22,077 bases of DNA from Candidatus Heimdallarchaeota archaeon (GTDB lineage: Archaea > Asgardarchaeota > Heimdallarchaeia > Heimdallarchaeales > Heimdallarchaeaceae). The position numbers and the translations under genes were made by a program. Location of the stretch: positions 1 through 22,077 of the forward strand of contig JAHLWR010000035.1 in the NCBI GenBank assembly GCA_019057815.1, read 5' to 3'. Shown in pieces: positions 6,807-8,482 of the stretch. Under the pieces are notes generated by a model, which was not told the origin of the DNA, searched no databases, and saw only the letters and a program-made list of their open reading frames with translations. Position 1 is the stretch's first letter. Each line of letters opens with the position of its first letter.

Positions 6807-7011
6807 AGTTCTATTTTAATGCGCAACTAAATTTTTATATTTTCCTTTTATGATTTCCTTCTACCACCTTACACCTTAAGGAGGAAAACAGTCACAAAGA
6901 GTGAACTTCGCAATAATGACCCTTTAAGCAAAATACTCAACCCTCCCATCCTAATAGCCAAGGGGATAGATACTCATCAGAATAATTTGTAGATATACTT
7001 TTGCTTCAACT

Positions 7012-8358
7012 TTAATCCTTGGAGTATATCAGTGAGGTAACAATAATTCTTCTAAGAACTTCAAGATTCATAATAACTCCTAAAATAAACAATGTCCAGA
7101 ATATTTGATTGAACAATGAACCTAATAAAATTATAAATATTCGTAAATCACGTCTAACTAAAAATTGAAAGAAACCTGTTTGTTTGTTAACGAATTCTTC
7201 GAATTTTGTTGAGGAATAGCTATTCAGAAAACTTCCAATAAGAGCAAAAAAACCTACAATCCATCCCCAATAATTTTCTGTTCTAAACCACAAACCCAAG
7301 GAAAGACCGAAAATAAAGAAACCATCTGCATATCTGTCAAGGATAGAGTCTAACCATCCACCAAATGTTGATGATTGAAATTTTAGTCTTGCTACTTCTC
7401 CATCACATCCGTCTAGTATTGAAGTTATTTGAGCTAGTATCCCTCCAATAATAAGTGCCCAATATGCTGGAAAAGATAGAAAAACTGATGCCAATATAGC
7501 TACTGCAAAACAAAAGAAGGAGATCATATTAGGTGAAATAGATGTTTTAACCAATAATTTTGATATTTGAATAGATATCGGCCTATTAATGAACCTAGAA
7601 ATAACACCATCTGTAGTTTTCTTAAGCTGTTGACACAACATTTTTCTAGAATTCTTTAAATCTTCTTTAGTATTAATGTTTATCCACCATGTGTCAATAT
7701 CCTCACTCATTGCAGAATCATAGCTATCAGCTGTTGAAACATCGAAAATTCCAACATGTCCCTTTTCACTGCCTACAGCAATAGCTTCAGCTAATTCTGT
7801 TTTATTTTCTTTAATAGCTTCCTCAATGAAAGCAAATATTTTTGGTGTACACCGAAAAATACCAGTATCGATACAATTTGAGTTTTCAAGTTCCTTTCCT
7901 ATTTCGATAATTTGTCCGTTCTTTTCGAGTACTTTTGTATCTGTCTTTAAAGGCTCTCTTCTGTCTATACCTATTACAATGTCGTTACTCGATTCATAAT
8001 TAATAATCCCTTCCAGTATTCGATAATCAAGAATATGATCACTCATTAAAAGTATGAAGGTTTCTTGTAAATATTTTCGAGCTTTAAAAACTGAGATCCC
8101 ATTTCCTTTTTCCCAATCATCATTCTCAACATAAACTATCTTTATTCCATATTTCCTTCCATCTCCCAACTCCTCTTTTATTTGCTCTCCAAGAAAACCA
8201 ACAACTATAATGAATTCATTAATACCAGCTTCTTTTGCTGTTAAAATCACTCTTTCAATCAAAGGAACCCCTAAAAGACGAATTAGTGGTTTAGGTTTTG
8301 CATGAGTCAAATTGGGTAATCTAGAACCTTGACCTGCTGCAATTATCAGAGCTTTCGT
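7012..8358 (-). CDS. Bifunctional NTP-transferase / CDP-alcohol phosphotransferase (IPCT/DIPPS-like), apparent ACG start
   Basis: Extending upstream of the called TTG (8310) gives (ACG)KALIIAAGQGSRLPNLTHAKPKPL, the canonical nucleotidyltransferase N-terminus. LLMSDH; DGVISRFINRPIS; CDP-alcohol motif DGCDGEVAR...GGWLDSILDRYAD; multi-TM C-terminal half. Confidence 0.88.
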   Translation of the reverse strand, partial: TKALIIAAGQGSRLPNLTHAKPKPLIRLLGVPLIERVILTAKEAGINEFIIVVGFLGEQIKEELGDGRKYGIKIVYVENDDWEKGNGISVFKARKYLQETFILLMSDHILDYRILEGIINYESSNDIVIGIDRREPLKTDTKVLEKNGQIIEIGKELENSNCIDTGIFRCTPKIFAFIEEAIKENKTELAEAIAVGSEKGHVGIFDVSTADSYDSAMSEDIDTWWININTKEDLKNSRKMLCQQLKKTTDGVISRFINRPISIQISKLLVKTSISPNMISFFCFAVAILASVFLSFPAYWALIIGGILAQITSILDGCDGEVARLKFQSSTFGGWLDSILDRYADGFFIFGLSLGLWFRTENYWGWIVGFFALIGSFLNSYSSTKFEEFVNKQTGFFQFLVRRDLRIFIILLGSLFNQIFWTLFILGVIMNLEVLRRIIVTSLIYSKD

Positions 8359-8365
8359 CCTAAAA

Positions 8366-8371
8366 CCACCT
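8366..8371 (-). promoter_or_regulatory. Shine-Dalgarno AGGTGG, 7 nt upstream of the ACG
   Basis: Minus strand TTAGGTGG-TTTTAGG-ACG-AAA. Confidence 0.65.
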
Positions 8372-8482
8372 AATTTGAGTAATTGTACAGCTAATAATTA
8401 ATCACCATACTTAATGAGCTCATATAAATCAATGAGAATATCTAATTTTTAAATATAGTGTTTATTTTTAAATTATTTTTCA

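Follow-up and report, generated by a model that had tools for sequence, protein, structure and literature searches.

The 22,077-nucleotide stretch of DNA analysed here (contig JAHLWR010000035.1 of assembly GCA_019057815.1, referred to below as the window) comes from an Asgard archaeon of the family Heimdallarchaeaceae and carries on its minus strand a gene for a predicted bifunctional enzyme of the IPCT/DIPPS type. This gene probably begins at the ACG codon at 8358-8356. The conservation of the site and its comparison with orthologs point to a real translation start of a functional gene, led by a Shine-Dalgarno (SD) motif and read by the initiator Met-tRNA. Judging from several gene heads of the same kind, this lineage very probably starts some of its proteins at ACG. 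A review of archaeal translation initiation names AUG, GUG and UUG as the only start codons (PMC7531240); if the present reading is correct, this set would be incomplete for the group of archaea closest to eukaryotes.

Read 5' to 3' on the minus strand, the gene head consists of the motif AGGTGG, the spacer TTTTAGG (8365-8359) and the ACG, followed by AAA GCT CTG ATA ATT GCA GCA GGT CAA GGT TCT AGA (Table 1). The 13 codons that separate the ACG from the in-frame TAA upstream (TTA TTA GCT GTA CAA TTA CTC AAA TTA GGT GGT TTT AGG) include no ATG, GTG or TTG. Only the last of them, AGG, placed directly 5' of the ACG, differs from ATG by a single base, and the other ACG cases described below lack it. 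The TTG selected by gene callers lies 16 codons 3' of the ACG, is preceded by no SD-like motif in the window sequence, and deletes the G-x-G-S-R loop if used as a start. This layout, which a first-pass annotation had reported from the letters of the window without giving the strand, was confirmed. The annotation had also placed the ACG at the position of the initiator methionine, and this is borne out by the only full-length fused ortholog detected among 40 relatives (genome G035, 42% identity): its head, ATG AAA GCA ATA ATT CTA GCG GCT GGA GAC GGT ACA AGA, stands codon-for-codon opposite ACG AAA GCT and the following triplets. Finally, two gene heads of the 22-kb window were said to share one context, and indeed the pattern GGTG-N4-10-ACGAAA was observed three times there, versus 0.02 expected from shuffles, two of the three matches being gene heads with SD-ACG-AAA (8358 and 17748). 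The third, at 10453-10472 on the minus strand upstream of a glycosyltransferase gene, reads ACG AAA AAA GTT TAA; it is not a gene start, because a stop is reached after four codons, and corresponds at most to a 4-codon upstream open reading frame (ORF).

Table 1. Coordinates of the gene head, the enzyme gene and the other ACG genes. Plain numbers are positions in the window; numbers preceded by C and a colon are positions on contigs of the source genome (G000).
Feature	Location	Strand	Basis or remark
Shine-Dalgarno-like AGGTGG	8366..8371	-	8 nt between GGTG core and ACG, within the usual 5-8 nt
ACG, proposed initiation codon	8356..8358	-	Aligned with ATG of G035 ortholog
In-frame TAA closing the frame upstream	8398..8400	-	Translation of frame
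Coding sequence, IPCT/DIPPS-like bifunctional enzyme, 448 codons; stop 7012-7014	7015..8358	-	Pfam, PDB 4MND, NCBIfam
G-Q-G-S-R codons, nucleotide-binding loop of nucleotidyltransferase fold	8320..8334	-	Translation; aligned with GLGTR of 4MND
TTG, start picked by gene callers, 432-aa product	8308..8310	-	First canonical start in frame
Family-5 solute-binding protein with signal peptide, ACG start	17746..17748 (coding sequence 17748-15760; SD AGGTGA 17760-17755)	-	Frame scan
Membrane protein, ACG start	C8:38598		Frame scan
DNA methyltransferase-like gene, ACG candidate C46:48348	C46:48345-48350 (L039)	+	Frame scan
PHP-family phosphoesterase, SD-ACG start, head TKIDLHTHS	C35:1488-2342 (locus L038:189-1043; orthologs L045-L063)	+	Ortholog comparison

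The protein read from ACG has the domain layout of a bifunctional IPCT/DIPPS, in which a cytidylyltransferase fold containing G-x-G-x-R is followed in one chain by a CDP-alcohol phosphotransferase containing D-x2-D-G-x2-A-R...G-x3-D-x3-D. Pfam detects NTP_transferase (PF00483) at residues 2-191 and CDP-OH_P_transf (PF01066, CDP-alcohol phosphatidyltransferase) at residues 275-378. The best solved relative, the bifunctional IPCT/DIPPS of Archaeoglobus fulgidus (PDB 4MND, E 8.7e-52), aligns over residues 2-443, and so from the second residue of the protein read from ACG; the CDP-alcohol block LDGCDGE(V/I)AR and the subsequent G...DSILDR are identical in the two. The score against the NCBIfam equivalog NF041135 (285.8 bits) lies below the 580-bit cut-off of this model, and the gene is therefore labelled IPCT/DIPPS-like, its function being a predicted one. 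The genome also encodes myo-inositol-1-phosphate synthase, detected as two tandem PF01658 matches on contig C48; these genes could equally serve the synthesis of inositol lipids.

The source genome is a 3.74-Mb metagenome-assembled genome (MAG) of 48 contigs with 32.8% G+C, and for a single MAG the default suspicion is that an error of sequencing, base calling or assembly has turned a true ATG into ACG. Nothing else in favour of such an artefact was found. The independent Logan re-assembly of the probable source run produced one 17.9-kb contig (depth 38.9) that is identical over 7000-18000. The DNA occurs in sediment and cold-seep metagenomes. Six strain contigs from other metagenomes (JGI 3300022542 and 3300022540, ENA ERZ25746247 and ERZ27251159, Logan SRR7716470 and SRR14803095), of about 95% protein identity, all keep the ACG, and each shows its own substitutions near it. 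The identity of the re-assembly and the presence of the ACG among nearby substitutions in other metagenomes lead to the rejection of an error, as the first-pass annotation had anticipated, and the ACG of the PHP gene described below recurs in 14 separately assembled genomes. The probability left to an artefact is negligible.

The seven strain sequences, which span at least five other samples, document in addition how the gene has evolved. The SD motif, the spacer and ACG-AAA-GCT are invariant in 7/7 aligned sequences, the mean column identity around them being 92%. The rate of synonymous differences (pS) reaches 0.10 between pairs, the ratio of the nonsynonymous to the synonymous rate (pN/pS) ranges from 0.2 to 0.36, and all 1347 nt are open, with no frameshifts or stops. 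The ACG is older than the divergence of the strains, and the gene has remained under purifying selection ever since. Together with the conservation of the PHP ACG across genera, this selection in ACG-bearing strains upholds the earlier argument that random start loss is not at work.

A competing explanation assumes precisely such a loss: the gene would be read from the TTG at 8310 or not at all, with a truncated and decaying nucleotidyltransferase domain and a membrane domain that still works. The TTG is itself invariant in all strains, and pN/pS is higher in the N-terminal nucleotidyltransferase half (0.44) than in the C-terminal membrane half (0.13). Moreover, in the genomes G027, G031 and G038 each of the two domains matches an open frame of its own (two of the frames being adjacent on one contig), which makes a stand-alone C-terminal enzyme conceivable. 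A value of 0.44 is nevertheless still a purifying one, and purifying selection acts on both halves, if less on the N-terminal one. The 16 head codons are open and G-x-G-S-R is retained in every strain, its x position varying between Q and R. The TTG has no SD-like motif, whereas the ACG has a well-spaced and invariant one, and the SD-ACG arrangement recurs in other intact genes, among them the PHP gene, where it is conserved across genera and any downstream start would delete H-x-H. A start at the TTG is considered unlikely for these reasons. In the protein database, the six sequences of the 90% cluster have all been annotated from the TTG, with 432 aa, which fits the absence of a canonical start at the true position in all six.

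The case for ACG initiation in this lineage is best supported by a gene for a PHP-family phosphoesterase. The NCBIfam models that come nearest to it are 3',5'-nucleoside bisphosphate phosphatase and RNase RNM, each with a score below cut-off. Orthologs are present in 35/41 genomes. Within the family, the aligned start codon is ACG in 14/20 genomes, which represent two genera and 47-91% protein identity, and ATG in 5/20; the sixth non-ACG genome, G005, has its ATG one codon upstream. In other families the gene begins with ATG or GTG at the aligned codon or slightly 5' of it. All family members conserve a GAGGTG-type SD motif 6-7 nt before the start. In the eight heads that were measured an in-frame stop lies 0-1 codon 5' of the ACG (G019 reads TAA TAA ACG), and the upstream context shown for the remaining ACG heads contains no canonical codon. 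Among the species checked, those with leucine at codon 5 reach their next canonical start only after 20-49 codons, too late to retain the H-x-H metal site. The maximum-likelihood tree places ACG on at least six deep lineages, set apart by branch lengths of 0.3-0.7 changes per site; two derived clades have ATG. ACG is the rarest threonine codon of the genome (6.5% of Thr codons), and the synonymous ACA, ACT and ACC never occupy the aligned start in the 20 family genomes. Since it stays ACG or gives way to ATG alone, comes after a conserved SD motif and stands at the first sense position, this triplet behaves as a start codon and not as a threonine codon.

Other ACG genes of the genome show a different history. 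The solute-binding protein gene of the window begins with AGGTGA, 7 nt and ACG AAA TCT, and 110 codons precede any canonical start in its frame. All 22 of the 22 paralogs and orthologs examined start with ATG AA(A/G/C/T) at the equivalent place, and the ACG is therefore specific to the copy of this species. In the membrane protein gene on contig C8, the closest ortholog (76% identity) reads AGG AGG AAA AAA TTC ATG where the source genome has ...TTC ACG, and all other paralogs start with ATG or TTG. Both ACG starts look recent in the light of these comparisons. The change from ATG to ACG has thus occurred more than once and is tolerated in intact genes. The methyltransferase-like candidate on contig C46 reads AGGTGAT-acaca-ATT ACG AAA, and its frame runs for about 140 codons until a canonical start is reached; here the ATT, one codon 5' of the ACG, is favoured by the spacing and is the more likely start. 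Two further ACG candidates were found among short ORFs. As a separate observation, the closest paralog of the solute-binding gene (64% identity; G000 C43:105726-107702, minus strand, L228) contains one in-frame TAA and may be a pseudogene or an assembly error.

These genes come from a scan of every stop-to-stop frame with 100 or more codons, in which codons lying before the first canonical start and behind a strong SD motif were collected. For the enrichment survey, shadow ORFs were removed, only the first 16 codons of each frame were retained and an SD motif was required. ACG was SD-linked in 5/40 occurrences (odds ratio 7.4, p 0.001), CTG in 6/50 (odds ratio 7.1, p 0.0004) and ATT in 12/322 (odds ratio 2.0, p 0.024), the value for all other codons that are not near-cognate being 1.8%. 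In these gene heads without a canonical start, ATA, ATC, AAG and AGG showed no SD enrichment. ACG is enriched behind SD motifs, and an excess of this codon does therefore exist. The excess over other ATG variants foreseen in the first-pass annotation holds with respect to ATA, ATC, AAG and AGG; it is not unique to ACG, CTG and ATT also giving a signal. The spacing of the three best ACG cases (8, 7 and 6 nt) is normal for this genome, in which that of 1851 ATG genes peaks at 5-8 nt. Counts of SD-N-XYZ k-mers taken without ORF context proved too noisy, even ATG being only 1.2-1.7-fold enriched, and pattern counts across relatives were therefore not used. In the genome G004, no convincing ACG start was detected in the 400 kb compared, the BLAST of its stop-to-stop ORFs being dominated by shadow ORFs and conserved leaders.

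The initiation machinery of the genome looks ordinary. The initiator tRNA gene (C38:292671-292786, minus strand) has a CAT anticodon (CAU in the tRNA), the A1:U72 pair, the GGG/CCC anticodon stem and one intron. No initiator-like tRNA with a CGU anticodon occurs in the genome, and tRNA-Thr(CGU) is an ordinary elongator. The factor aIF1 is a single-copy protein of 103 aa that matches the M. jannaschii aIF1 from end to end (4MO0, E 6e-34). An inspection of the initiator tRNA anticodon, aIF1 and the deaminases of this genome for unusual features, as proposed in the first-pass annotation, showed a normal CAU anticodon and a visibly ordinary aIF1, and no editing-type deaminase was found. Regarding tRNA annotation itself, the intron of the initiator tRNA measures 41 nt and adjoins the anticodon; 25 tRNA genes are found without allowing introns and 42 when introns are allowed, about 17 of them being detected only in the latter case.

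The following mechanism can be proposed. On a leadered mRNA, the SD sequence AGGTG would pair with 16S rRNA at its 3' end, which would put the ACG in the ribosomal P site. There the ordinary initiator Met-tRNA (CAU) would be accepted although the central base pair is a C:A mismatch. The protein would most likely begin with methionine, its predicted N-terminus being (M)KALIIAAGQGSR. A near-cognate ACG should be a weaker start than AUG, so that it probably keeps the level of the enzyme low or dependent on aIF1. We infer, accordingly with this scheme, decoding by the initiator tRNA, methionine as the first residue and a reduced efficiency that would be a selected property. The factor aIF1 is described as discriminating against non-canonical starts (PMC8211752).

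A second competing explanation leaves initiation canonical and supposes that site-specific C-to-U editing converts the ACG into AUG in the mRNA, as in plant organelles. A strict ACG that alternates only with ATG is indeed the pattern of edited organellar starts, and the genome contains two small genes of the cytidine/dCMP-deaminase fold. These are the only two such genes, however, and their sizes (154 and 176 aa) are those of ordinary housekeeping enzymes. No match to a DYW-type deaminase was found in the genome, a weak argument as the control genomes were blank too. Beyond the SD motif and the AAA, no sequence or structure that could act as a recognition element is common to the ACG sites: the folds around four of them gave z-scores of -1.2, +0.9, -2.3 and -0.1, with no conserved RNA structure shared by these sites or present in 18 PHP orthologs. 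To our knowledge, C-to-U editing of mRNA has not been described in archaea. Editing is judged improbable, more so than a start at the TTG, and neither of these two explanations has positive support.

Direct initiation at the ACG of the IPCT/DIPPS-like gene, the preferred reading, has to be weighed against several points. No RNA run is present among the sequencing runs that match this DNA, and the case for initiation is an evolutionary one. The same-genus genome contains no close ortholog of the gene, whose ACG conservation is consequently limited to one species-level cluster. The roughly 3-fold higher pN/pS of the nucleotidyltransferase half leaves room for some relaxation, and the 16-codon head is too short for a selection test of its own. 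The genome has few ACG starts (four solid and three possible), and neither aIF1 nor the initiator tRNA displays an unusual feature that would explain a tolerance for ACG.

Three known systems offer useful comparisons. In eukaryotes, near-cognate initiation at ACG or CUG is illustrated by VP2 of adeno-associated virus, the C' protein of Sendai virus and plant AGAMOUS. The subject has been reviewed (PMC4705826, PMC8287933). The likeness lies in the proposed mechanism, an ordinary initiator Met-tRNA reading ACG with reduced efficiency, and in the high rank of ACG and CUG among the non-AUG codons of eukaryotes, which matches the ACG and CTG enrichment reported here; the host is moreover an Asgard archaeon with a eukaryote-type set of initiation factors including aIF1. 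Unlike in eukaryotes, where scanning and Kozak context operate, an SD motif places the codon here on a prokaryote-type mRNA. There is also no shared downstream hairpin, and the ACG is the sole start of ordinary enzymes, not an alternative upstream start.

Bacteria use rare starts such as the AUU of infC and pcnB, CUG and AUA. These resemble the present cases as weak starts on SD-led mRNAs that a fidelity factor discriminates against (IF3 in the bacterial, aIF1 in the archaeal case), conserved in particular genes where they presumably tune expression; ATT starts occur in this genome as well. They differ in that ACG lies outside NCBI translation table 11, whose start set does not include it. As for plants, chloroplast and mitochondrial genes such as ndhD, psbL and others carry ACG starts (PMC9845219). 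They share with the archaeal genes a prokaryote-type translation and a conserved ACG at the start that alternates with ATG among lineages; most of these organellar ACG codons are, unlike here, edited to AUG by PPR/DYW factors, of which none was found in this genome.

A wider proposal can only be offered tentatively, and may well not hold. Asgard archaea of the Heimdallarchaeaceae type would possess a hierarchy of start codons unlike that of other prokaryotes and closer to that of eukaryotes, ACG and CUG being preferred over AUA, AUC, AAG and AGG. ACG starts on SD-led mRNAs would be selectively maintained, at the genus level in the PHP gene, and elsewhere derived repeatedly from ATG, as a low-gain or aIF1-sensitive control, and they would be the first natural ACG starts of archaea. 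The literature searched on ACG or other non-canonical starts, in Asgard or archaea at large, brought up no relevant report, a 2026 Haloferax ribosome-profiling preprint that mentions ACG not being covered, and non-AUG initiation at ACG seems not to have been described previously for archaea. Near-cognate initiation at ACG and CUG is best known in eukaryotes, so these genes would provide a testable handle on how the stringency of start selection evolved from SD-guided initiation to scanning.

There would also be a practical consequence for annotation. Standard gene callers cannot call ACG, and the six database copies of the IPCT/DIPPS-like enzyme would have lost 16 residues and with them the nucleotide-binding loop. 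Truncations of 8 to 110 residues would affect the PHP, solute-binding and other proteins and remove signal peptides and catalytic motifs. Starts that cannot be called would therefore produce systematic N-terminal truncations in the Asgard proteomes on which comparative and structural studies draw.

Several candidates for other non-canonical starts emerged along with the ACG genes. Two CTG cases were followed; both are ambiguous, and no case was therefore built on CTG. One of them (G000 C35:93995, plus strand, L239; G001 L240) is a 1054-codon secreted protein whose frame has a canonical start in neither species. The frames of the two orthologs diverge right after a common GAGGTG-TTG-ATG and an A-rich run (AAAAGAAAAAA...), so that ribosomal frameshifting or transcriptional slippage may be involved instead of a CTG start. 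In the other, C12:155047, a 90% paralog sits inside a 2501-aa frame. A response regulator (G000 C37:11185, plus strand, L237; head IRILLVDDE) has an ATT start behind AAGGAGGG, and the same ATT is kept in the same-genus genome (G001 L238) at 89% identity. A Rossmann-type gene (G000 C36:42309-43098, plus strand) is likely another case of a non-canonical start: with IRIIGLGYIGSEI in its head, it lacks ATG, GTG and TTG over 40 codons, and the homolog in G004 begins MKKLAIIGLGFIG.

The DNA located 5' of the IPCT/DIPPS-like gene (8400-8840 in the window) varies from strain to strain. The window has a glycosyltransferase gene and a small Thr-rich ORF at this place, an epimerase gene ends about 160 nt upstream of the IPCT/DIPPS-like gene in the JGI contigs, and one contig of run X6 skips 8459-8839.

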